This document shows, in pieces, positions 1,471-22,906 of a stretch of DNA of 64,000 bases. A program made the translations under genes and the position numbers. The first letter of the stretch is position 1. The number at the start of each line of letters is the position of its first letter. The notes below the pieces were generated by a model, which was given only the letters and a program-made list of their open reading frames with translations, was not told the origin of the DNA and ran no database searches. Location: assembly GCA_947648915.1 (NCBI GenBank), contig CANSPQ010000002.1, forward strand, positions 50 to 64,049, given 5' to 3'. The DNA comes from an uncultured Bacillales bacterium. Its GTDB lineage: Bacteria > Bacillota_I > Bacilli_A > RF39 > UBA660.

Positions 1471-2066
1471 GCAGAGAAAATACTATTAATAGACGGAAAT
1501 CTTCTTAAAACATCATCAATATTAGTTTCTATTTGATTCATCATCGTTTCATTATAATTTGATTTTCTTGAAAAAGAAATTTCATAAGGTCTAAAGATAA
1601 TAACAAATTCATTTTGATGTTCTGTTCCTACCTCTTCCCGATCTCTTTTAAAATTCAAATGCATCTTGATTTCTAAACTACTAATGTCTTTTAATCCTTT
1701 TTCTTGGATGGCATCTTCAAATTCCTGAAAATTTTCACAAACAATATTACTATACTGTTTTCCTCTAATTGCAATTTCAAAAAGAGATGCTCCTTTTTTA
1801 AAACTGTAATTATATTCACCATGTTGTTCTTTGTTTTTTTCTACTTCATCTGTAAGTGCAGTAAATTTTTGATATTCATCCGCACAATATTGTACTAAAT
1901 AAGTAATACATTCTCCCGTTGGGATAATTGTTGAATAATTGTGTTGATTTTGAATTCCAAATGGTGTATTTTCATCGATATAATTGTTCATAGTCCACTC
2001 CCTCTTTTCATTATTCAACCACTTCTTATTCCTTTTTACGAATTGATATTGATACATCAAACTCAT
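1464..2066 (-). CDS. hypothetical protein
   Basis: 200-aa ORF with no recognisable motifs. Same strand as the neighbouring genes. Confidence 0.35.
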   Translation of the reverse strand: MSLMYQYQFVKRNKKWLNNEKREWTMNNYIDENTPFGIQNQHNYSTIIPTGECITYLVQYCADEYQKFTALTDEVEKNKEQHGEYNYSFKKGASLFEIAIRGKQYSNIVCENFQEFEDAIQEKGLKDISSLEIKMHLNFKRDREEVGTEHQNEFVIIFRPYEISFSRKSNYNETMMNQIETNIDDVLRRFPSINSIFSAK

Positions 2067-2142
2067 AAATATATCATATCAAATAAAAAAGAAAGCTTCA
2101 ATATCTTTCTCTAAAATTATCATAATTTCTTGAAGTTTATTC

Positions 2143-3411
2143 TTATCTTATCTTTCCTTTTTCTTCTGATAATATCATTCCCAACAACTCTGATTCTGTC
2201 ACTTGGATTACCTTTCCACAACATGGTTTGAAATTTGGATTTCCATAAACAATCCAAATTACATTTTCATTTTTTAAATCTTCTTTGGGCATATTTCCTG
2301 GACCAGGGATTCCATCGGTAAATATAATTTTATTGATTTCTTTTTTTCTTGTGAAAGAACGAACGGCTAAATCCCAGTCTTCTGTCCATGCATACTTATG
2401 TGATTCTTCTGGAATCACAAAATGATCAATATCATCATTTGACTTTATTTCTACCATTTTATAATATTTTTCATTAAAACACCCTACTTTTAATTTGGAA
2501 TGATGTAATATCGGTTTGATTATCCTTAAAAAAGATTTTACTAAATTTAAACTAACTGACCCAGAAACATCAATTAAAACCTCTGTTTCCGCTTCTTCTT
2601 CTAACTCGTCTTCTTCTAATCTATATGCATAATTATTCTCAGCAATGGAACGTCGATTACTCCAAATAATCTCGTCTTTATTGACTTCTCTTCTTAAAAG
2701 AAGTAGCCAATCAATCGCATTATTTTCTTCCCCTATTGTGCCTAATTCATTTTGAATCTTATTTTTTTTCCATTCCTTTAATACTTGTTCTTTTTTCTGC
2801 TTCAAATCTTTTTTGGCTTTTGCAATGCGTTCCTCTCTATTTTCTCTAAATTCTTGTTTTTCATCAATTTTTGTATCTGGCTTTTGAACCTGATCTTCAC
2901 CTGTTTCCATTTTTTCAAAAGCTTCTTTCCAAAGACTATGGTCATCCCTCCAAGTGGATTTTGTATAATCCCCATCCTCATTTAACAATTTTTCATATAA
3001 TTGTTCTGCTGTATAGGATAACGCATCTGGATAAGTAAAATAATCTTCTTCTATCTGAAATCCATCTCTTACCAAATTGGCATTGATGATTGCATCGGTA
3101 GCTTCATTCCATACGTCTAAATCTTTCTTTTTGCCATCCTTTTTTAAACGGTACATATGAAGAAATTGCATATGCATAAGCTCATGCGCCAAGAGAAATA
3201 AACGTCCCTCAAGTTCTAAGCTTACAAAATAATCAGGGTCAATCAAAATCTTTTTTCCATCTGTTGCCCCTGTATGATACTTTAAGTGACGATGATATTC
3301 AATTGGTGTAGCTGCAAGTAAACTTGCAAAACGAGGATAGCGAATCATTAGAATATTTTTTGCTTCATTCATTAAATCCATAGACAACTCTCCTAAAATG
3401 CTACAACACAC
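2143..3411 (-). CDS. VWA-like domain protein with N-terminal putative metallopeptidase domain (DUF2201_N/DUF2201 type), partner of AAA_5 ATPase
   Basis: HExxH motif (LAHELMHMQF) in the N-terminal half. The C-terminal half is VWA-like (LIDVSGS). Last gene of the three-gene operon with the ATPase. Confidence 0.6.
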   Translation of the reverse strand: MCCSILGELSMDLMNEAKNILMIRYPRFASLLAATPIEYHRHLKYHTGATDGKKILIDPDYFVSLELEGRLFLLAHELMHMQFLHMYRLKKDGKKKDLDVWNEATDAIINANLVRDGFQIEEDYFTYPDALSYTAEQLYEKLLNEDGDYTKSTWRDDHSLWKEAFEKMETGEDQVQKPDTKIDEKQEFRENREERIAKAKKDLKQKKEQVLKEWKKNKIQNELGTIGEENNAIDWLLLLRREVNKDEIIWSNRRSIAENNYAYRLEEDELEEEAETEVLIDVSGSVSLNLVKSFLRIIKPILHHSKLKVGCFNEKYYKMVEIKSNDDIDHFVIPEESHKYAWTEDWDLAVRSFTRKKEINKIIFTDGIPGPGNMPKEDLKNENVIWIVYGNPNFKPCCGKVIQVTESELLGMILSEEKGKIR

Positions 3412-3773
3412 AATTGATAAAGATTGGGTGCAATATTTTTTAAAGATTCTTTTGATACTACTGTAAAAACAATAATGACATTGGAAGGAATTGAATACCC
3501 CATAAATTCTCTATCTTTGATGAGTCCAATATATTTTTCTTGTTGCGCCATAGTTAATGTATCTATTCTGCGAATGACAAAATACGTTGTTTTTCCATTG
3601 CTAGAAAGTTGTTCCAATTTGGATTTGAAAATGGGATTTCCATAACGAAACAAATAGGTATCTTCTATACTAGCATCCATATATGCAGTTTGTCCTAAGT
3701 TTTGATACATACAATCCAGTATAATAGCACCAGTCGCACTCCCTCGTTGTAACTCTACTAATTCCTGATTCAT
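3393..3773 (-). CDS. hypothetical small protein (operon member between ATPase and VWA protein)
   Basis: 126-aa ORF. Translationally coupled: ATGA overlap with the upstream ATPase and an overlap with the downstream VWA gene. Confidence 0.4.
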   Translation of the reverse strand: MNQELVELQRGSATGAIILDCMYQNLGQTAYMDASIEDTYLFRYGNPIFKSKLEQLSSNGKTTYFVIRRIDTLTMAQQEKYIGLIKDREFMGYSIPSNVIIVFTVVSKESLKNIAPNLYQLCVVAF

Positions 3774-5530
3774 CTACTTTTTCCAACTCCCTCTATTTGT
3801 CCCTTTTTCAGTTCTAATTGTTGTAATTCACTCATTTTCAACATCCGCATCTCATCATTTCCAACCCATAGTAAATCATATAATTCACGATATTCAGGAT
3901 CACAATATTGCTGAACAAATTCTCTACAAGTACCAACTTGATGCTCATCAGCTAACAACAATGCCACCATAGAAGCATATCGCTCATTAGTGTTTCTTGG
4001 TAAATCTGCTTGGGTATAGGTTTTATTAACGACTTGTTCTATGGTAAGTGTTGGAATATTATAATAATTCAAAAATTCTCTTGCCCAAGATTCACGCAAT
4101 TTGGTTGCGATAGACATTTGTAGTAAATGTTCTACATCTTTGCCCACATATTTGCCTTCCACTAAATTTTTTTCAAAGGCACATAGTGTATGAGAAATGG
4201 ATGTCCACCCTCTTGGATCATTTGTTCTACCACGACAACCATTACGATCTTTATCCCTTTCCCCTACCTCTGGTTCTTCATAAAAGTATCCAATCGAGGA
4301 AATATCTTCTCTTCTTTGATTTTCCATATATTTTGAAACAATATATCCAATCACAGAAGGATGTAACTGATTCGGAATTGCATATTCATAAATCCATTCT
4401 GAAACACGTGGTTCCATATCTAATATATGATCAAATCTCTTTTCTAGTGGTTCTGCTAATTCCTCGGCAACACTAGAATATTTTTGCGGATTTCCAGTTG
4501 CCACAATCACTGTATTTTCTGGCAATTTTAATCCACTTCCCGTTTCTACAATCCGATTCAAAACGAGGGTATAGACAAGTGATTGTACCACTGGTTTTAC
4601 ATTCAAAAGTTCATCTAATAATATTACAATTTTTTCATTACTTGTCTTTGATCTTTCATATATGGTATCCGCAAGGTCATATAAGCTTTGAATATTACTT
4701 GCAACCATTTTCTTTTCTTCTTCCGTCGCACAATTTAAAATCGCTTGCTTGGCAAAATTAGGCGGAATATTTTGACCTGTTTGAAAGTTACTAGAACCAA
4801 CCACCTTCTCAGGAAGCATATTGTTGGTCAATTTGAGATAGATTAAATTTGGATATAATTTACGAATACGCTCTGTCTTTCCAATTCCAGATGGCCCTCT
4901 TAATAGTACGGATTCCCCTGCTTCAATCCAATTTTGAATCATTTCGGTATATGTCATTTTTCTTCTCTCAGATGCGATTGTGGTATCTGGATTGAGATTT
5001 TGAAGTCTTGTTTTACGAATACTGGTATCGGTATCAGGTATCAGGTAATCCACTTTATTTGTCTGTATTTCTTTTGCAAAACAGTTATCCATATATTTTT
5101 TGATATCTGTCTTTGCAAAATCTCCCTTATAATTTCTAATCTGATTGAATTGCACACCTGCAAACAAAATGGTTTTAGGAAGCACAATGTCATTCTTTTT
5201 ATCTACGAACCAACGAACTTTCTCTACTTTCACCCAATATGGTTTCCCGATTTTTATTTTTGCTCCTGTTGAAAGCACCTTTCCCGCCCCATTTTTATCA
5301 CCCAAAAAGCGAATATATCTTTCTTGCATATACTCGTACTCAATAAATTCACGTGCCTGAAAAGGCATGTCATAATCATCATAAGCAACAGAATCTGTTG
5401 TATATTTGTTTCCTGTTTCCTTCATACCAATTTGGTATGTATTTTCCAATTGTCTTGCAAAATTATCTTCCACTGCAGTTTGTGGAAATTCTCCAAAATC
5501 AACTTCAAGAAGTCCACTTGCCCCTCTCAC
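3770..5530 (-). CDS. AAA+ ATPase, AAA_5 (MoxR/McrB-like) family. In frame with the upstream DGR target ORF.
   Basis: Walker A LLRGPSGIGKT. Walker B/sensor ILLDELLNVKP (DEINRAP-like). ATGNPQ arginine-finger region. The assigned start is a GTG with no convincing RBS. Confidence 0.7.
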   Translation of the reverse strand: MRGASGLLEVDFGEFPQTAVEDNFARQLENTYQIGMKETGNKYTTDSVAYDDYDMPFQAREFIEYEYMQERYIRFLGDKNGAGKVLSTGAKIKIGKPYWVKVEKVRWFVDKKNDIVLPKTILFAGVQFNQIRNYKGDFAKTDIKKYMDNCFAKEIQTNKVDYLIPDTDTSIRKTRLQNLNPDTTIASERRKMTYTEMIQNWIEAGESVLLRGPSGIGKTERIRKLYPNLIYLKLTNNMLPEKVVGSSNFQTGQNIPPNFAKQAILNCATEEEKKMVASNIQSLYDLADTIYERSKTSNEKIVILLDELLNVKPVVQSLVYTLVLNRIVETGSGLKLPENTVIVATGNPQKYSSVAEELAEPLEKRFDHILDMEPRVSEWIYEYAIPNQLHPSVIGYIVSKYMENQRREDISSIGYFYEEPEVGERDKDRNGCRGRTNDPRGWTSISHTLCAFEKNLVEGKYVGKDVEHLLQMSIATKLRESWAREFLNYYNIPTLTIEQVVNKTYTQADLPRNTNERYASMVALLLADEHQVGTCREFVQQYCDPEYRELYDLLWVGNDEMRMLKMSELQQLELKKGQIEGVGKSR

Positions 5531-5571
5531 TTCGTTCGAGGAGATGGAAGAGATAGAAGAGTATGGTAAAG

Positions 5572-5645
5572 CTGGACGGGCTCCTACATCCCGTTTCCTA
5601 ACATCATCTTAGTCCTCATAACCGTCATCATTAACGACGCGCGCG
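5572..5645 (-). repeat. DGR variable repeat (VR)
   Basis: 74 bp, 65/74 identical to the TR at 7173-7246. All 9 mismatches are at TR adenines on the minus (RT) strand. The GC-rich 3' end GGAGCCCGTCCAG is identical in both copies (IMH-like). Confidence 0.85.
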
Positions 5646-5854
5646 TCATTATCTCCATCTGAAGTTTTTGTCCACCACCAACCAGTACGGTCTTTTAATG
5701 TACTTCCTTCACTTGTATATGTACTATCTGCTACATAACCACCTAATAAAATAGCAAAATCCGAAATTGCACATTTGGTTCCATACAATTTAAATATATC
5801 TAATTGTTTATCACCAAATATTTGTTCTGTTTCTAAAAAAGTAAAATCTAACAT
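5609..5854 (-). CDS. DGR target protein (81 aa) with C-terminal VR. Its stop codon lies inside the VR.
   Basis: RBS GGTGGTGA 5 nt before the ATG. The C-terminal codons AAT GAT GAC GGT TAT GAG GAC correspond to TR AAT AAA AAC GGT AAT AAG AAC. C-terminal signature GWWWTKT...ARVVN. Confidence 0.7.
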   Translation of the reverse strand: MLDFTFLETEQIFGDKQLDIFKLYGTKCAISDFAILLGGYVADSTYTSEGSTLKDRTGWWWTKTSDGDNDARVVNDDGYED

Positions 5855-5916
5855 AGTAAATCACCACCTATATCATAACATAATTTTGCTCATTGTAGAC
5901 ACCTTTTGTCATTTTT

Positions 5917-6972
5917 TTACAGTTTATTTATATCTTTCAACAAAATTGCCTGTCTAAGAAAACACTCGCTTGTATTTTTTATATGATTGTAAAAAGCATT
6001 TTTTCGAATCAATACATAAGTTTCATCGACAATTCCCTTTTGATATAATTTATTCATTGTTTTTAAATGTTTTTTCATTCTCTGTTTCGAAGAATATCGC
6101 AATTTCATAATCAATTTCCCACTAGGTGTAACAATATGTCGATATCCTAAAAAATCAATTCCATTTTTGACCATACCAATTTGTGTTTTTTGATTGAGTT
6201 CTAATTTTAACTCATTATGGCATATGCTTTCTATTTCATTCTTGCAATATTTTAAAAACTTTTTGTCCTCATGAATTAAAATCATATCATCCATATACCT
6301 TACATAATACTTTACTTGCAGCACCTCTTTGATGTATCGGTCTACTACATTTAAATAATAAAGGGCAAACCACTGACTCGATTGATTTCCAAGAGGCAAA
6401 CCCTTATTGGCAGCATTTGGTTGCTCCTGAATTAACTTTCGAATCATCCACATTTCATCTTCTGAAAAGTCAATCTTTTCAAGTAAGGTGATTAAAATTT
6501 GATGATCAATACTTGGAAAGTATTTATGAATATCACATTTCAAAAAATAAAATTGATTATTTCTTACTTTCCTATATGTCTCTCCTAAAAATTGATGTAG
6601 CCGATTAATTGCAAACGTAGTACCTTTTCCTTTTCGGCAAGCACAATTATCATAGATCAATTTCTTTTCTATTTTTGGTTTTAAACAAACATCGCAAAAG
6701 CAGCGAATCACCACTCTGTCTTTAAACGGCAAAGCTTCTATTAAACGCTCTTTTGGTTCATAAATATAAAATATTTTATAAGAACCCAATTGATATTTAC
6801 GCTTATAAATATCTTGCATTAACTCATGTATATAAACAGCCAAATTGGTCTCAAACCGAATCACTTCTCCTTTGTGTTGTTTGGATTTTCGGCAATTTTG
6901 ATATGCTTCATATAAGTTTTCAAATGTAAAAATTTCTTTTAAATTCATAAATACTCCCCAAAAAAGAAACAC
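5917..6972 (-). CDS. DGR reverse transcriptase
   Basis: RT motifs, including YxDD (YVRYMDDMIL). Motif 4 reads GLPLGNQSSQWFALYYLN, the DGR-specific [IL]GxxxSQ form rather than the group II/retron SP form. 351 aa, the usual DGR RT size. Confidence 0.85.
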   Translation of the reverse strand: MFLFWGVFMNLKEIFTFENLYEAYQNCRKSKQHKGEVIRFETNLAVYIHELMQDIYKRKYQLGSYKIFYIYEPKERLIEALPFKDRVVIRCFCDVCLKPKIEKKLIYDNCACRKGKGTTFAINRLHQFLGETYRKVRNNQFYFLKCDIHKYFPSIDHQILITLLEKIDFSEDEMWMIRKLIQEQPNAANKGLPLGNQSSQWFALYYLNVVDRYIKEVLQVKYYVRYMDDMILIHEDKKFLKYCKNEIESICHNELKLELNQKTQIGMVKNGIDFLGYRHIVTPSGKLIMKLRYSSKQRMKKHLKTMNKLYQKGIVDETYVLIRKNAFYNHIKNTSECFLRQAILLKDINKL

Positions 6973-7172
6973 CCCATATAACGCCCAAAGAATGAATTCA
7001 TTCGTTGTTTGTGTGAGTGTTTATATATTTTTTCCATCGCATCTAAGACTTCTCTTTTAGCAATTAGAAAAGAAGAAAATTCCTTCACCTTACAATACAG
7101 GTTTATTTTACCAAAAATAAACTTCTCTCATCTGTTTTCTAGATTTTTCTTAAAATCTCTTCAAAAGTGAAT

Positions 7173-7246
7173 CTGGACGGGCTCCTACATCCCGTTTTCT
7201 AACATTATTTTAGTTCTTATTACCGTTTTTATTAACGACGCGCGCG
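7173..7246 (-). repeat. DGR template repeat (TR)
   Basis: The adenine-rich copy on the RT strand: ...AAT AAA AAC GGT AAT AAG AAC TAA AAT AAT GTT AGA AAA CGG... Located between the avd-like ORF and the RT. Confidence 0.85.
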
Positions 7247-7325
7247 AAGAAAAACAACGGGGCCTAAAATAAAAACGCACAAATGTAAATTTTCTCCTTA
7301 ATTAAAGATTTTTCAATCTAAAATC

Positions 7326-7910
7326 CTAACCTTTCTTACGCCATCTTTCATCATCACTCTTTTTCCAAGCAGCGATTAAATTAATGGCTTCTGCTAATTG
7401 AATGGATATTTGTTTATACTGTTTTTTCAAAATACAATTACAACTCTCCGCAATCATCGCAACATATCCCAATAATTTTAGCTTTACAATAGTCGCTTTT
7501 TGAAATTGTACTCTTATCATCTTATTTTCTTGAGAGTCCATTCTCGTCAAATTAGCTTGCAACAACAATTCCAATGTATCCAAACAATAGTTCTGCATTC
7601 TATTTACAAATACACCTCTAAACTTTTTAGGAGATTTTTCTGTCACTGCGATTACGTAAGCACCCAACTTCTTTACAACCGTAATTACTATTAAATCATT
7701 TGCATTAAAGGGAATCTTAGAAATTCTTTCCAATTCCTGATCTTCTATTTCTAATTTTTCCCTTAAAGCATTTATATTTATTTTTTGTTCATTTACACTC
7801 GCAAGTGCTTTTTTGATTGCAACTGCATCATCTATACTATTTACACTTGTTTCATATTGTTCTACTTGCTTTGGTATTTTTAAACTACCATTTCTATTTA
7901 CCTGCAGCAC
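7326..7910 (-). CDS. Avd-like accessory variability determinant (four-helix-bundle protein), probably with an N-terminal extension or a later non-ATG start
   Basis: The C-terminal ~120 aa align loosely with the Bordetella phage bAvd pattern (Y..A...SPKKFRGVF..., LDTLELLLQAN). Basic, helical. Immediately upstream of the TR. Confidence 0.5.
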   Translation of the reverse strand: MLQVNRNGSLKIPKQVEQYETSVNSIDDAVAIKKALASVNEQKININALREKLEIEDQELERISKIPFNANDLIVITVVKKLGAYVIAVTEKSPKKFRGVFVNRMQNYCLDTLELLLQANLTRMDSQENKMIRVQFQKATIVKLKLLGYVAMIAESCNCILKKQYKQISIQLAEAINLIAAWKKSDDERWRKKG

Positions 7911-8023
7911 TACATCACAACTCCTAGTTGGTATTATAGCACAAGTTATTATTTTTTTAAAATACCTAGATTGTTATAATTTAAAGAATAAATTTTAACA
8001 AAATATACAAAAACAATATTTAT

Positions 8024-8048
8024 TAAAAAAAAATCACATTTCTGCGAC
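8024..8048 (-). terminator. intrinsic terminator hairpin (GTCGCAGAAATGTGAT + U9) of the TCGCAGAAATGCGA family
   Basis: Stem-loop with G-U wobbles only on the minus-strand RNA, followed by T9. Confidence 0.4.
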
Positions 8049-8113
8049 AATTTTGTTACAGATTTTTAAAATCTGTAAGGTTATTTTTTTCTTTGTAAAA
8101 TAAGGTAAAATCA

Positions 8114-8142
8114 TTTACTAATAGTCCAATAAATAGTATGAT
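8114..8142 (+). promoter_or_regulatory. sigma-A-like promoter for the small peptide A mRNA
   Basis: TTTACT-17 bp-TATGAT. Confidence 0.4.
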
Positions 8143-8217
8143 GAATATAGGAATACAAGACTTTGTTGGGTTTTTGCCGAACTTCCATTCAATTGGATAG
8201 AGGGGAGGCTTGAGATT

Positions 8218-8310
8218 ATGAAAAAAAGAGTTTTTATTTTGAAAATTCTAAATAACATTATTCTCATTTTGTTCCTTCTACTTTTATTAGTAGCCGAGAT
8301 AAAGAAATAA
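8218..8310 (+). CDS. 30-aa hydrophobic peptide (type I toxin-like) MKKRVFILKILNNIILILFLLLLLVAEIKK
   Basis: Strong RBS GAGGGGAGG 7 nt upstream. Single TM-like core with a charged C-tail. A paralogous module lies at 22653. Confidence 0.45.
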   Translation: MKKRVFILKILNNIILILFLLLLLVAEIKK

Positions 8311-8411
8311 CACCCTAATTCAGTGAATTAAGGTGCAAACCAATTTGGTAAGCACTCAACTTTGCAAGAAGTCAAGTGTTCCATTTTTATTGTATGGAAT
8401 TTCTTCCATCT
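8300..8411 (-). ncRNA. putative cis-antisense sRNA (type I antitoxin-like), module A
   Basis: Transcribed from TTTACA-17-TATAAT. Begins with the hairpin ATGGAAGAAATTCCAT. Ends at the hairpin 8311-8335 plus UUAUUUCUUUAU, which overlaps the last codons of the peptide ORF. Confidence 0.45.
8311..8335 (-). terminator. 12-bp hairpin (CACCTTAATTCA/TGAATTAGGGTG) plus U-run. Terminator of the antisense sRNA overlapping the peptide ORF stop.
   Basis: Seen in sequence. The U-run is present on the minus strand only. Confidence 0.5.
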
Positions 8412-8417
8412 ACATAC

Positions 8418-8446
8418 ATTATAATATATTATTTTGACTTTGTAAA
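8418..8446 (-). promoter_or_regulatory. near-consensus sigma-A promoter (TTTACA-17-TATAAT) on the minus strand
   Basis: Plus-strand tgtaaa at 8441-8446 and attata at 8418-8423. A conserved paralog lies at 22835-22863. Confidence 0.5.
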
Positions 8447-8492
8447 CTAGTTTGCCAAATTTTTCTTATAAAATAACATGCTAAATTGGAGC

Positions 8493-8515
8493 AAAAGAAA
8501 ATCGCATTTCTGCGA
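8493..8515 (-). terminator. intrinsic terminator TCGCAGAAATGCGA + U-rich, downstream of the 8516-9148 gene
   Basis: 6-bp stem, GAAA loop, then UUUUCUUUUG. Confidence 0.5.
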
Positions 8516-9148
8516 CTAATTTAGTACCTTTTGTTTTTGATTATCTTTTATTGCACCTGCTATTGTACAATAGCAATTTTTATTACCATTATAGAAAATT
8601 CTAAATAATTGTGATATCATTTGTGGTGAAGAAATACGAGTCGTATGAATCATACCATTTTCAATTGTTTGCTTTTCCGTTATTGTAAAATTTTCAAAAT
8701 CTTGAAGTAAAAATATAAGTTCTGCTAAATAGTTGTCTATCATATTAGAACATATTTTATTAAGTTCTTTCTCTAGATATATACTAGCCTCATTTATAAA
8801 TGTCATTTGAGAAAATTCTTCATCACAACTAGAACAATCCATAACAGGTATTAAAACACTTATTCTTCCTGCTAATCTTATTAATTCTTCACGTTCCAAA
8901 CCAAACAGTTTTTTACACGCATAATTGTTCATTGGTATTTGTTTGGTTTTATAATATTTGGAAAAAATTAGGATAATATTATTTCTTAATTCTGTAATAA
9001 TCTCTGTTTCATTTTTACCAATGACACTTAATGGTTCAATTCCTGGTTGAAATAAACACATATTAACATTTAATTCTGAATTGAGTATTTCTAGTATATT
9101 TTTCAAAATTTTAGTCTGACCTATAACTTGTTCACTTATTTCTGCCAT
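8516..9148 (-). CDS. hypothetical protein
   Basis: 210-aa ORF with no recognisable motifs. Confidence 0.4.
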   Translation of the reverse strand: MAEISEQVIGQTKILKNILEILNSELNVNMCLFQPGIEPLSVIGKNETEIITELRNNIILIFSKYYKTKQIPMNNYACKKLFGLEREELIRLAGRISVLIPVMDCSSCDEEFSQMTFINEASIYLEKELNKICSNMIDNYLAELIFLLQDFENFTITEKQTIENGMIHTTRISSPQMISQLFRIFYNGNKNCYCTIAGAIKDNQKQKVLN

Positions 9149-9313: not shown

Positions 9314-9389
9314 ATGGTGTTCTCGACAGGACTCGAACCCGTATCGGTCCCTTAGGAGGGGACTGCTCTATCCTGCTGAGCTACGAGAA
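9314..9389 (-). tRNA. tRNA-Arg(CCT)
   Basis: Cloverleaf: acceptor GTTCTCG/CGAGAAC; anticodon stem GTCCC/GGGAC with loop CTCCTAA; T-loop TTCGAGT; CCA encoded. Confidence 0.85.
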
Positions 9390-9438
9390 CCTGCTAATAT
9401 TGTAACACACTGAAGTGCAAAAAAAAATAGGTTTTGAC

Positions 9439-22373: not shown

Positions 22374-22483
22374 GTAAATTCTCCTTTCTAAAATTCAGTT
22401 TATTCTTTTTTTATGTCAATATTATGAGCAAATTAAGAAATTTTTGTGAAAAAGAATCTGTAAAATTTAAAAACAATGGTAAA

Positions 22484-22504
22484 CAAAAAATCGCATTTCT
22501 GCGA
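22484..22504 (-). terminator. intrinsic terminator ATCGCAGAAATGCGAT + UUUUUUGUUU
   Basis: Third copy of the conserved 14-nt hairpin. Confidence 0.45.
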
Positions 22505-22548
22505 TAGGGATACTAAGAATTTTAATTGGTATATTCTTGATTATTCTC

Positions 22549-22577
22549 TTGTTTTGATATTTCATTAATAGTATAAT
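22549..22577 (+). promoter_or_regulatory. sigma-A-like promoter (TTGTTT-17-TATAAT) for peptide B mRNA
   Basis: Seen in sequence. Confidence 0.4.
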
Positions 22578-22652
22578 ATATTTAGGAATACTTAGTTTGC
22601 TTAGGTACTATTTCCTTTCTTTTACTTTTGTAAATGAAAGGAGGCGTGTATT

Positions 22653-22730
22653 ATGAAACAATTAGAAAAAACACTTTGCTTAATCATAATCCTCCTTATT
22701 GCTGTAATTTTTATTATGACAATAAAATAG
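22653..22730 (+). CDS. 25-aa hydrophobic peptide (type I toxin-like) MKQLEKTLCLIIILLIAVIFIMTIK
   Basis: RBS AAAGGAGG. Paralog of the 8218-8310 module. Confidence 0.45.
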   Translation: MKQLEKTLCLIIILLIAVIFIMTIK

Positions 22731-22828
22731 TACCAACATATGTTGGTACAAAACCAAATAGGAAGTAGTACCTAGCCTCTTGACAACTAAGTATTCCCTT
22801 TTTTTATTGTATGAAGCTTCCTTCATCT
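22718..22828 (-). ncRNA. putative cis-antisense sRNA, module B
   Basis: Promoter TTGTAT-17-TATAAT. 5' hairpin ATGAAGGAAGCTTCAT. Terminator is the 10-bp perfect hairpin GTACCAACAT/ATGTTGGTAC plus UAUUUUAUUG overlapping the peptide stop. Confidence 0.45.
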
Positions 22829-22834
22829 ATATAC

Positions 22835-22863
22835 ATTATACTAAATTTTAGTTTAAAATACAA
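22835..22863 (-). promoter_or_regulatory. sigma-A promoter (TTGTAT-17-TATAAT) on the minus strand
   Basis: Plus-strand atacaa at 22858-22863 and attata at 22835-22840. Confidence 0.5.
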
Positions 22864-22906
22864 GTTTCTTATAAATTTTTTTGTCTGCTATTAATTTATA
22901 GAAAAA

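Follow-up and report, generated by a model that had tools for sequence, protein, structure and literature searches.

Features of the locus

The stretch of DNA analysed here (64,000 nucleotides from an uncultured Bacillales bacterium; hereafter, the window) holds at ~8025-8450 a compact set of elements, designated module A, in which a short ORF for a hydrophobic peptide and its promoter face a convergent promoter for a predicted antisense small RNA (sRNA). The peptide is referred to below as a putative toxin, and the long-range helix predicted between the two ends of its mRNA as P1. The features of module A are the following:

8025..8050, minus strand: left-boundary terminator, hairpin GUCGCA-GAAA-UGUGAU followed by nine U (repeat motif, conservation)
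8056..8090, plus strand: upstream insulator hairpin TTACAGATTTT/AAAATCTGTAA and T-run, just 5' of the toxin promoter (self-complementary at 8056-8078)
8114-8119 and 8137-8142, plus strand: toxin promoter TTTACT-17-TATGAT (9/12 match)
8150-8181, plus strand: 5' strand of P1, in the leader, mRNA positions 2-33 (RNAfold, RNAduplex, cognate energies, covariation)
8200-8208, plus strand: Shine-Dalgarno (SD) sequence GAGGGGAGG, 9 nt before the ATG (read from sequence)
8218-8310, plus strand: putative toxin ORF, 30-aa hydrophobic peptide MKKRVFILKILNNIILILFLLLLLVAEIKK (translation; pN/pS)
8298-8336, minus strand: putative terminator of the sRNA, with a hairpin of 12 pairs (8336..8310) and then UAUUUCUUUAUC, overlapping the final codons and stop codon of the toxin ORF
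8298..8411, minus strand: predicted sRNA of ~110 nt, consisting of 5' hairpin, A-rich linker, middle hairpin and terminator
8344-8382, plus strand: 3' strand of P1, in the 3' UTR, which is also the core target of the antisense (same evidence as the 5' strand)
8384-8391, plus strand: U-tract of the toxin mRNA UUUUUAUU, its presumed 3' end, directly after P1 (read from sequence)
8409..8394, minus strand: sRNA 5' hairpin AUGGAAGAAAUUCCAU, at the start of the predicted RNA
8446..8441 and 8423..8418, minus strand: sRNA promoter TTTACA-17-TATAAT (11/12 match, the best of the region)

A previous sequence-only reading of this DNA had pointed out a plus-strand promoter, a near-consensus minus-strand promoter, a strong ribosome-binding site and a 30-aa hydrophobic peptide, all of which are found at the positions listed. 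The leader, which that reading had put at 80 nt, measures ~69 nt from the predicted +1 of the toxin mRNA (~8149).

Paralogue and homologues of the cassette

The same parts recur in the window in a paralogous module B, whose elements are the following:

22480..22865, plus strand: whole paralogous module
22488-22504: left hairpin
+1 near 22584, plus strand: toxin promoter TTGTTT-17-TATAAT
22653-22730, plus strand: ORF, MKQLEKTLCLIIILLIAVIFIMTIK
22734-22753: hairpin
near 22800, plus strand: predicted closure of P1, before the U-run
22863..22835, minus strand: convergent promoter TTGTAT-17-TATAAT

The predicted mRNA folds with z = -4.6 in module A and z = -9.6 in module B, and the corresponding values for the sRNA are -4.4 and -4.2. 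When run on the window, the family pattern retrieved exactly these two modules and no others. A DNA-pattern scan returned 31 further copies in 30 loci of metagenome-assembled genomes (MAGs), with at most five matches per genome. The loci belong to gut or rumen MAGs labelled Bacilli, Erysipelotrichaceae or Tenericutes, and one of them (L019) is a tandem array of three copies. Intact copies have a common layout of promoter, leader, strong SD, ORF of 22-31 aa, post-stop hairpin, U-tract and convergent promoter. Since this layout is shared by a paralogue in the window and by more than 30 homologous loci, the features of module A cannot be attributed to chance.

Since the pattern that retrieved most homologues lies in the sRNA promoter region, the conservation of the sRNA block is in part a matter of ascertainment. 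An independent scan keyed to the toxin promoter returned only four loci, all from one metagenome, in which intact toxin genes occur only alongside an sRNA block. The sole copy apart from such a block (L031) is syntenic, and its ORF is split by an insertion with IS3-like transposase ORFs, which is the only, and indirect, hint of toxicity in these data. Some decayed copies have kept the sRNA end, while the 5' part of the toxin gene is gone; they are not counted toward toxicity, because the sRNA-promoter pattern would bias their number.

In Rfam only tRNAs were matched at gathering thresholds, a permissive search adding sub-threshold noise, and no description of this cassette family was found in the literature searched. 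The cassettes look like a previously undescribed family of uncultured gut and rumen Bacilli.

The peptide ORF

Between the ORF of module A and that of its homologue in L018 there are nine synonymous and three conservative changes (pN/pS 0.09), and the ratio ranges from 0.06 to 0.14 in the comparisons with L006 and L018. Across the family, pN/pS was below 1 in 13/13 ORF pairs tested. Judged from these substitution patterns, the ORF of module A is coding and under purifying selection. This mostly synonymous change is the opposite of the lack of ORF conservation that the sequence-only reading had set against its own proposal.

Every intact homologue carries an SD and a hydrophobic ORF of 22-31 aa. 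The peptides diverge fast, keeping no more than a charged N-terminus, a single hydrophobic helix and a short tail of polar residues. That of module A holds no P, G or W. In Pfam and NCBIfam (E <= 10) all of its matches fell below threshold and were to unrelated families, with no type I toxin family among them, and a search of 1.84 billion protein representatives yielded no hit. An exact look-up of this peptide and of a 210-aa neighbour returned no record for either.

Peptides that are small, amphipathic to hydrophobic and charged at their ends might also be exported or surface-active products (a bacteriocin, a PSM-like cytolysin or a pheromone precursor), with an antisense RNA limiting their output. 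The family peptides show no likeness to a double-glycine or Sec-type leader, neither copy in the window is adjoined by genes for transport, immunity or modification, and the genomic contexts vary from locus to locus, all of which renders export very improbable.

Long-range pairing and predicted occlusion of the SD

The sequence-only reading had noticed that the 5' end of the leader could fold back on the region downstream of the ORF. The comparative data indicate that this fold-back is real and longer than described: in module A the predicted P1 stops one base short of the U-tract, and in every intact copy it runs from +2 to the U-run, ending 0-1 nt before the U-tract. TATAAT stands at the equivalent place in the homologues, with the 5'-3' helix beginning 6-8 nt downstream in every intact copy. 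The -10 box of module A itself, TATGAT, has one mismatch with respect to this family hexamer.

Duplexes between cognate arms have a mean energy of -34.1 kcal/mol versus -18.2 kcal/mol for non-cognate arms. RNAalifold, applied to a plain MAFFT alignment, recovered 24 P1 pairs, with compensatory changes in 21 of them. Moreover, 86.8% of the P1 alignment cells are able to pair, versus 33-45% in slid controls, and the observed pairing was reached by none of 500 shuffles. Taken together, these alignments and energies support the existence of P1 in the toxin mRNA. Because the arms differ between copies while remaining complementary, and the G-U pairs are possible on one strand only, the pattern is one of covariation at the RNA level and not of conserved terminal repeats.

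The same observations bear on whether the cassette could be a non-coding repeated intergenic element, such as an insulator/terminator cassette or a MITE-like sequence, with an ORF and hexamers that are incidental in AT-rich DNA. The genome has 30.7% G+C and promoter-like hexamers are frequent (12 versus 5.9 expected); in addition, the cassette holds several terminator hairpins, and its 5' and 3' arms do form an inverted repeat. Nevertheless, such an element would not account for arms that change in sequence and stay complementary with strand-specific G-U pairs, nor for an ORF under purifying selection that is always accompanied by a strong SD, and no copies were present in the viral contigs, annotated plasmids or annotated phages searched. 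A non-coding origin is for these reasons regarded as extremely improbable.

A terminator scan of 7800-8700 detected no terminator-like site on the plus strand. Lacking a terminator hairpin of its own, the toxin mRNA probably draws its terminator stem from P1 as well.

The SD appears to be engaged in a second structure. Its predicted partner in module A is the CU-rich stretch UUCCUUCU within the ORF; in the predicted ensemble it is unpaired with a probability of 0.27, and the ORF accounts for 64% of its pairing partners. Ensembles predicted for most family members likewise have the SD mostly paired. They show no clear shift in SD accessibility upon sRNA binding, and consequently a translational effect of the sRNA is not evident in these models.

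The predicted antisense sRNA

From a predicted +1 at ~8411, the sRNA would overlap the toxin mRNA over ~90 nt at its 3' end. The sequence-only reading had described it as an RNA of ~110 nt that starts with a hairpin and ends at a 12-bp hairpin with a U-run, and these sequence features are indeed present. The terminator scan flagged the 12-pair hairpin as terminator-like on the minus strand only (two such sites versus 0.3 expected). On the plus strand, the hairpin 8310-8336 is followed by AAACCAAUUUGG, the U-run being found on the minus strand only. In module A the minus-strand form of this hairpin is the more stable one (-16.0 versus -11.4 kcal/mol), although the preference is not significant family-wide (15 versus 8 modules, p = 0.075). 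A post-stop hairpin of different sequence occupies the same place in every intact homologue.

The other two hairpins favour the minus strand throughout: the 5' hairpin is more stable on it in 23/23 modules and the middle hairpin in 22/22 (one tie). The middle hairpin covaries, and is the only one recovered by MAFFT and RNAalifold from the whole sRNA; the 5' hairpin and the terminators are too variable in length and sequence to align, and were for that reason judged by sequence listing and per-sequence folds. A -35 box at a spacing of 16-17 nt, which lies outside the search pattern, exists in 23/23 modules. These comparisons support the conservation of the antisense promoter and hairpins.

The sequence-only reading had further noted that the 5' arm of the sRNA is complementary to a stretch of the toxin leader. 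The 7-nt match, CTTCCAT at 8183-8189, does exist, but it is not conserved in the family. Pairing between these segments was rejected as a family feature, as the mean energies of -8.94 kcal/mol for cognate and -8.58 kcal/mol for other combinations (sd 2.28, 23 modules) reveal no cognate preference.

Cassette boundaries and genomic setting

On its left side, module A is bounded by two hairpins. The minus-strand terminator would keep antisense read-through from leaving the cassette. The window has three occurrences of its motif, AAATCRCATTTCTGCGA, versus 0.02 expected; in L012, L014, L018, L020 and L029 the motif precedes the sRNA block by ~350 nt, and L006 has a compensated variant (CTCA...TGAG). 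Two wobble pairs of its stem, as read from the sequence, are possible on the minus strand only. The plus-strand insulator is kept with compensated stems in L006, L009, L012, L014, L018 (ACCAAT/ATTGGT), L020, L026 and L029; it was not flagged by the terminator scan because it has only two G-C pairs.

Module A neighbours a diversity-generating retroelement (DGR), a tRNA and an HD-domain gene, and module B the genes for trigger factor and a VTC-domain protein. The possibility that the cassette belongs to the adjacent DGR was discarded, given that there is no DGR near module B or the other loci.

Proposed mechanism

Module A is most probably a chromosomal type I toxin-antitoxin (TA)-like cassette of an undescribed family with a bsrG/SR4-like layout. 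The central proposal of the sequence-only reading, a type I TA-like module, is thereby strengthened by the conservation of the ORF, by the antisense -35 boxes and the hairpins favoured on the minus strand, by the covariation of the fold-back, and by the multiple and tandem copies. Within this proposal we infer the two transcripts, the toxicity of the peptide, the involvement of RNase III and the role of P1 in termination.

A sigma-A-type promoter would give rise to an mRNA of ~245 nt encoding a 30-aa membrane peptide with a single helix. The ~33 nt at the 5' end of this mRNA would pair with the ~39 nt that precede the U-tract, closing both ends. With its SD duplexed with the CU-rich stretch of the ORF, the full-length message is proposed to be, therefore, poorly translated. 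The convergent promoter would produce an RNA of ~110 nt, a perfect complement of the 3' ~90 nt of the mRNA that spans the 3' strand of P1, the post-stop hairpin and the last codons. The first contact would most likely occur between complementary hairpin loops; pairing of the sRNA would then displace the leader from P1 and build a long duplex, which could be cut by RNase III, leading to degradation of the toxin message. A drop in the sRNA would allow the message to be translated and the peptide to damage the membrane.

A different product that has to be considered is a benign small membrane protein, that is, a regulatory or structural micro-protein whose level is tuned by a cis-antisense RNA. 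The comparative data speak for coding, RNA structure and an antisense promoter, none of which demonstrates toxicity, and many small hydrophobic proteins of Gram-positive bacteria are not toxins. A protein of this kind would hardly be expected to diverge so fast that only a charged N-terminus, a helix and a polar tail are kept, to exist in multiple and tandem copies, to be encoded by an mRNA predicted to be heavily locked by P1 and SD sequestration, to have insulating terminators at the boundary of its cassette, or to have one copy disrupted by an IS-like insertion. As these traits together are the usual signature of a type I toxin and not of a housekeeping micro-protein, a benign role is judged unlikely.

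For the type I TA-like cassette, a bolder version of the mechanism may be contemplated, in which P1 is itself the intrinsic terminator of the toxin mRNA, with the transcript's own 5' end, ~200 nt away, as the upstream arm. The antisense, copying the leader sequence, would invade P1 by strand displacement, and the whole unit would be insulated by boundary terminators of its own on either strand. This version is offered as a doubtful, though conceivable, extension. If true, 3'-end formation, protection of both ends and antitoxin control would all hang on one helix.

Significance

The family is skipped by gene callers, despite being present several times per genome in one clade of uncultured Bacilli from gut and rumen. 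It would represent another type I TA-like family of known design, and would add a new principle only if P1 acts as a long-range terminator. What it offers is a putative toxin mRNA with a covariation-supported 5'-3' lock, in Gram-positive-type bacteria and in many natural specificity classes. Orthogonal mRNA/antisense pairs of such a kind are in use as portable RNA regulators (PMC12721322). The modules could be incorporated into MAG annotation, and they mark variable regions; module A lies beside a DGR and a tRNA.

Comparison with known type I systems

Sequestration of the SD and long-distance pairing between the 5' and 3' ends are counted among the hallmarks of type I toxin mRNAs (PMC8594479). 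The closest architecture to that of module A is bsrG/SR4, a type I TA of the SPbeta prophage of B. subtilis, in which two convergent RNAs, as is predicted for module A, overlap where the mRNA ends, with the last part of the ORF included. Both systems encode a small hydrophobic peptide, that of bsrG being 38 aa long. In the bsrG mRNA, a helix is formed by 5' nt 1-35 with 3' nt 232-262, and SR4 overlaps the 3' end of the message (PMC3834814), so that the likeness drawn by the sequence-only reading is apt. The resemblance extends to a structured toxin mRNA, with a helix between the 5' ~35 nt and a 3' segment and a double-stranded SD, and to the proposed action, which starts from duplex formation at the terminator loop and is followed by mRNA decay (PMC3834814).

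Despite these similarities, there is no peptide or RNA sequence similarity between both systems (Pfam, NCBIfam, Rfam), and the predicted sRNA of module A has ~110 nt compared with the 183 nt of SR4. The predicted mRNA/sRNA overlap of module A (~90 nt) is shorter than that of bsrG/SR4, which comprises 123 nt, and the sRNA 5' hairpin of module A is left out of this overlap should the U-tract be the end of the mRNA. While bsrG has a separate terminator stem-loop (SL4) after P1, P1 abuts the U-tract in the module A family. Finally, in contrast to the SPbeta-borne bsrG/SR4, the family is chromosomal and multi-copy, belongs to uncultured gut Bacilli and had no viral or phage match in the collections searched.

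TxpA/RatA, BsrE/SR5 and YonT/SR6 are other Gram-positive type I TAs with 3'-overlapping antisense RNAs. The putative toxins of the module A family, of 22-31 aa, are shorter than those of these systems and have no homology to them in Pfam or NCBIfam, and the RNAs match no antitoxin family of Rfam.

The sequence-only reading had also likened module A to Fst/RNAII. This system (par of pAD1) and its relatives SprA1/SprA1AS do share with it the convergent promoters, the small membrane peptide and an SD held in an intramolecular helix (PMC7472228). Also in Fst, the 5' end of the toxin RNA is sequestered by a helix, named 5'-UH (PMC7472228). Nevertheless, this likeness does not hold for the defining features of Fst/RNAII. 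The two RNAs of that system share a bidirectional terminator, whereas module A has none and its predicted mRNA runs ~55 nt past the hairpin. DRa/DRb provide Fst/RNAII with a second complementarity at the initiation region, in whose place module A has only the non-conserved 7-nt CTTCCAT. The Fst toxin signature, P/D/S/TXXXG(C) in the helix and a conserved Trp that precedes a charged tail (PMC7472228), is absent from the module A peptide.

The Gram-negative systems hok/Sok and AapA1/IsoA1 have no sequence relationship to module A. Their antisense RNAs bind the 5' part of an mRNA whose lock is opened by 3' processing. As is predicted for module A, these messages are closed by pairing of their 5' and 3' ends, with the SD occluded (PMC8594479). 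In module A, by contrast, the antisense gene is situated at the 3' end; since the predicted antisense RNA has that lock's 3' strand as its complement, it resembles the leader and would compete with it.

Organization of module A

As far as sequence comparison reaches, the toxin-antitoxin-like interpretation of the sequence-only reading is supported, and a type I toxin-antitoxin cassette is the best-supported account of module A, the cassette at about 8025-8450. The region reads as had been described for its promoters, ribosome-binding site (RBS), peptide ORF and minus-strand hairpins, except that the leader, given as 80 nt, is about 69 nt long according to the predicted +1.

Predicted parts of module A
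8025-8050, minus: first boundary hairpin, a terminator with a nine-U run; stem compensated in one copy
8056-8090, plus: second boundary hairpin with a T-run; compensated stems, e.g., ACAGAT/ATCTGT versus ACCAAT/ATTGGT
8114-8119 and 8137-8142, plus: toxin promoter, TTTACT, 17-nt spacer, TATGAT; predicted +1 near 8149
8200-8208, plus: RBS, GAGGGGAGG
8218-8310, plus: peptide ORF, encoding MKKRVFILKILNNIILILFLLLLLVAEIKK
8336..8310, minus: sRNA terminator hairpin, 12 pairs followed by UAUUUCUUUAUC, over the last codons and stop of the ORF
RNA start, minus: predicted sRNA 5' hairpin, AUGGAAGAAAUUCCAU
8446..8418, minus: sRNA promoter, TTTACA-17-TATAAT, the best match of the region (11/12); predicted +1 near 8411

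A scan of 7800-8700 returned two terminator-like sites against 0.3 expected, both on the minus strand, and Rfam models detected only tRNAs in the window.

The peptide ORF

In all intact copies among the homologous loci fetched from MAGs and metagenome contigs (designated L plus a number), a strong Shine-Dalgarno (SD) sequence precedes an ORF of 22-31 aa, whose product combines a charged N-terminus with a single strongly hydrophobic segment and a short tail that is polar or rich in Lys. The module A peptide is near-unchanged in several MAGs. An unconserved ORF with synonymous-site decay had been named as evidence against the module, and the opposite was found: the ORF differs from that of L018 by nine synonymous and three conservative non-synonymous changes (pN/pS 0.09), the ratio is 0.14 against L006, and it lies below 1 in 13/13 pairs tested across subfamilies. 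The peptide matched no toxin family of Pfam or NCBIfam, even at E <= 10, and none of 1.84 billion predicted-protein representatives, and the cassette family is therefore unannotated; no description of it was found in the literature either.

In L001 and L023 the ORFs slip out of the hydrophobic frame where homopolymers occur (A8 and A7/T6), which could reflect pseudogenes or MAG assembly errors. The toxin ORFs of L001 and L024, the latter from a record labelled 'uncultured Tenericutes bacterium', stop at TGA; if these organisms decode TGA as Trp, the ORFs would extend into the hairpin. This question leaves modules A and B untouched, because the window has long ORFs under table 11.

Paralogues and distribution

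The search for paralogues proposed by the sequence-only reading was productive. Self-comparison of the window revealed module B (about 22,480-22,865), flanked by the trigger factor gene and a gene with a VTC domain, with its parts in the same order and a different 25-aa peptide, MKQLEKTLCLIIILLIAVIFIMTIK. Sequence conservation between both modules is found mainly at three places.

Places conserved between modules A and B
1: toxin -10 box and +1, TAGGAATAC
2: mRNA U-tract together with the antisense RNA's -10 box and initial bases, TTTTTATTGTATG...CATCTAYATACATTATA
3: left-hand hairpin, AAATCGCATTTCTGCGA

When the second of these blocks was used to scan 185,579 species-representative genomes, 31 matches in 30 loci were obtained, all in MAGs, labelled as uncultured Bacilli, Bacillales, Bacillota, Firmicutes, Erysipelotrichaceae or Tenericutes and originating from gut samples, among them those of mouse, rabbit and ruminants. 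Five matches fall in a single assembly, and three in each of two others. No viral contig, annotated plasmid or annotated phage was matched.

Tandem copies were added by a profile search of the fetched loci. On the minus strand of L019 (about 2060-3290) it identified an array of three intact modules, spaced by about 365 nt and encoding MTKREFYLYSIILLLFLVIIILLLK, MTKREISQFIIILLLFLVILLLLIK and MTKREISQYIIILLLFLVIIILLLK, together with a fourth, decayed copy; the sRNA -10 box is TAAAAT in the two upstream copies. In five loci (L002, L003, L005, L010 and L030) the sRNA end is kept, and the toxin promoter, the leader or the two together are missing.

The 5'-3' helix of the putative toxin mRNA

The fold-back between leader and downstream sequence suggested for module A has been borne out by duplex search, cognate energies and covariation. 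In the predicted mRNA, positions 2-33 pair with 8344-8382 (RNAfold, z = -4.6), forming a long-range helix, P1, which stops one base short of the U-tract at 8384-8391; module B has an equivalent helix of different sequence (z = -9.6). When the last 55 nt before the T-run were searched, alignment-free, against the upstream region, the best duplex of every intact homologue was found to start 6-8 nt past a TATAAT box and to end flush with the T-run, and copies without the 5' part yielded no such duplex. Leader and 3' arm pair at a mean of -34.1 kcal/mol when cognate versus -18.2 kcal/mol when non-cognate (sd 6.8), and by the energy matrix the family falls into at least eight specificity classes. 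RNAalifold, applied to a plain MAFFT alignment of leader and 3' arm, predicted 24 pairs, of which 21 show compensatory changes; 86.8% of P1 cells are paired, compared with 33-45% when partners are slid by 1-3 columns, and 0/500 shuffles matched the observed pairing or covariation score.

In predicted ensembles the SD is mostly paired, its partner being an anti-SD in the leader or a CU-rich segment of the ORF; in module A it is unpaired with a probability of 0.27, and the ORF accounts for 64% of its pairing. Sequestration of the SD is thus a prediction of these models. As the scan of 7800-8700 found no local plus-strand terminator for the toxin mRNA and P1 abuts the U-tract in every copy, P1 may double as the terminator stem, although we consider this unlikely. 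Only if P1 proved to be a long-range terminator would the cassette be surprising.

The predicted antisense RNA

Because the sRNA -10 box and the bases at the start of transcription were fixed by the retrieval pattern, finding them conserved carries no evidential weight. Four features that this pattern did not include support, at the level of comparative sequence, a real minus-strand transcript. A TTGACA-like -35 box at a spacing of 16-17 nt is present in 23/23 modules analysed. The inner stem of the 5' hairpin occurs in compensated variants (GGAA/UUCC, GAAG/CUUC, GAAA/UUUC, GCAG/CUGC and GCAA/UUGC). The middle hairpin covaries, with double changes in five of eight pairs and many G-U pairs, and is more stable on the minus strand in 22/22 modules (one tie), by a mean of 5.1 kcal/mol. 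Each intact copy also holds, directly 3' of the stop codon, a strong hairpin of differing sequence whose U-run is the complement of the A-rich last codons. In module A this hairpin has two wobble pairs exclusive to the minus strand (-16.0 kcal/mol there versus -11.4 kcal/mol), and across the family the strand preference is not significant (15 versus 8).

Being complementary to the 3' strand of P1, the antisense RNA resembles the leader in sequence and must compete with it. The proposed pairing of the sRNA motif AUGGAAG with CUUCCAU in the leader is indeed present in module A, but as a family feature it was rejected, since duplexes between sRNA 5' domain and leader are no better when cognate (-8.94 kcal/mol) than when non-cognate (-8.58 kcal/mol, sd 2.28). 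The match is treated here as chance or as private to one subfamily.

Boundaries, subfamilies and genomic neighbourhood

The two hairpins upstream of the toxin promoter are found in the subfamily of module A and in a second one, with peptides of the type MEYLVMLVILILLLDL(K/R)PKNKD (L009, L012, L014, L020, L033 and L034). They would bar outside transcription from the toxin gene and confine antisense read-through to the cassette. Both subfamilies share these hairpins, the toxin promoter and the sRNA block, whereas leader, ORF and 5'-3' helix are unrelated between them; the cassette is therefore modular and appears to exchange its core. Some copies of the second subfamily have additional upstream start codons (ATGTCTATGTG...). 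After the sRNA promoter, L002, L003, L006, L009, L021 and L026 carry a plus-strand hairpin with T-run, GTTTCCGATTTGGAAATTTTTTG, which may be a right-hand boundary terminator; it is missing from module A in the window, whose right flank diverges from about 8425 on.

An independent metagenome scan, with the toxin promoter instead of the sRNA block as query, gave four loci, all from one metagenome. Two are intact and both have the sRNA block, one is cut by the contig end, and the fourth (L031, 4364-8203) is the syntenic copy of module A, in which a 2.55-kb insertion with IS3-like transposase ORFs (92 and 276 aa) and a 232-aa ORF interrupts the toxin ORF past about codon 10. None of these four loci, a small sample, holds an intact toxin gene without the antisense promoter.

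A diversity-generating retroelement (DGR) adjoins module A at 5566-7910.

DGR features in the window
5917-6972, minus: reverse transcriptase (RVT_1)
7326-7910, minus: bAvd-like gene
7167-7246 and 5566-5645: 80-nt repeat, 86% identical

The mismatched positions are adenines in the minus-strand reading of the 7167 copy, the TR-to-VR pattern, and the VR-like copy lies just 5' of an AAA-ATPase ORF (3770-5530, minus) rather than at an obvious C-terminus. L031 lacks the reverse transcriptase segment (window 5646-7166), which has apparently collapsed between the two repeats. On the other side, a 210-aa ORF (8516-9148, minus) has no Pfam match, and its terminator (8500-8517) is a near-copy of the left-end hairpin of module A (8031-8047), flanking bases included. 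In the MAG locus L021 (CAMUMB01) the neighbour genes are 97-99% protein-identical to those of the window, which thus stems from that organism or one closely related to it. The 210-aa ORF and about 800 bp are absent there (400-480), and the tRNA gene (window 9318-9390) is the immediate neighbour of module A.

Proposed mechanism and comparison with known systems

It is hypothesized that the toxin mRNA is made closed and poorly translatable by P1 and the sequestered SD. Abundant antisense RNA would pair with the 3' ~90 nt of the message, displacing the leader, in an interaction that probably begins at complementary hairpin loops; the long duplex would then be cleaved, through RNase III if other systems are a guide, and the message would decay. 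Loss of the antisense RNA would then lead to translation of a membrane-damaging peptide. Support from the comparative data extends to a coding ORF, to P1, to the promoter and hairpins of the antisense RNA and to the pattern of copy numbers. The two transcripts themselves, the toxicity of the peptide, the nuclease and any translational effect are inferred. As a kind of system the cassette is familiar; its family is new and unannotated, and can help annotation as well as the mining of RNA devices.

The likeness to Fst/RNAII claimed by the sequence-only reading did not hold: that system is defined by a bidirectional terminator common to both RNAs, DRa/DRb complementarity at the initiation site, a PXXXG motif and a conserved Trp (PMC7472228), and none of these was found when tested. 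With hok/Sok and AapA1/IsoA1 the cassette shares a 5'-3' lock in the toxin mRNA (PMC8594479), although their antisense RNA acts at the 5' end, unlike that of the module A family. The likeness to BsrG/SR4 was well chosen as regards architecture, with no sequence similarity. In the bsrG mRNA, nt 1-35 pair with nt 232-262 in a helix also named P1, with the SD in a duplex, and SR4 overlaps the mRNA 3' end, promoting its decay and also inhibiting translation (PMC3834814). This combination of 5'-3' helix, duplexed SD and 3'-overlapping antisense RNA makes it the closest design found. Unlike bsrG/SR4, the cassette has a shorter sRNA, no separate terminator stem-loop past P1 and boundary terminators, and it is chromosomal, multi-copy and from a different clade.
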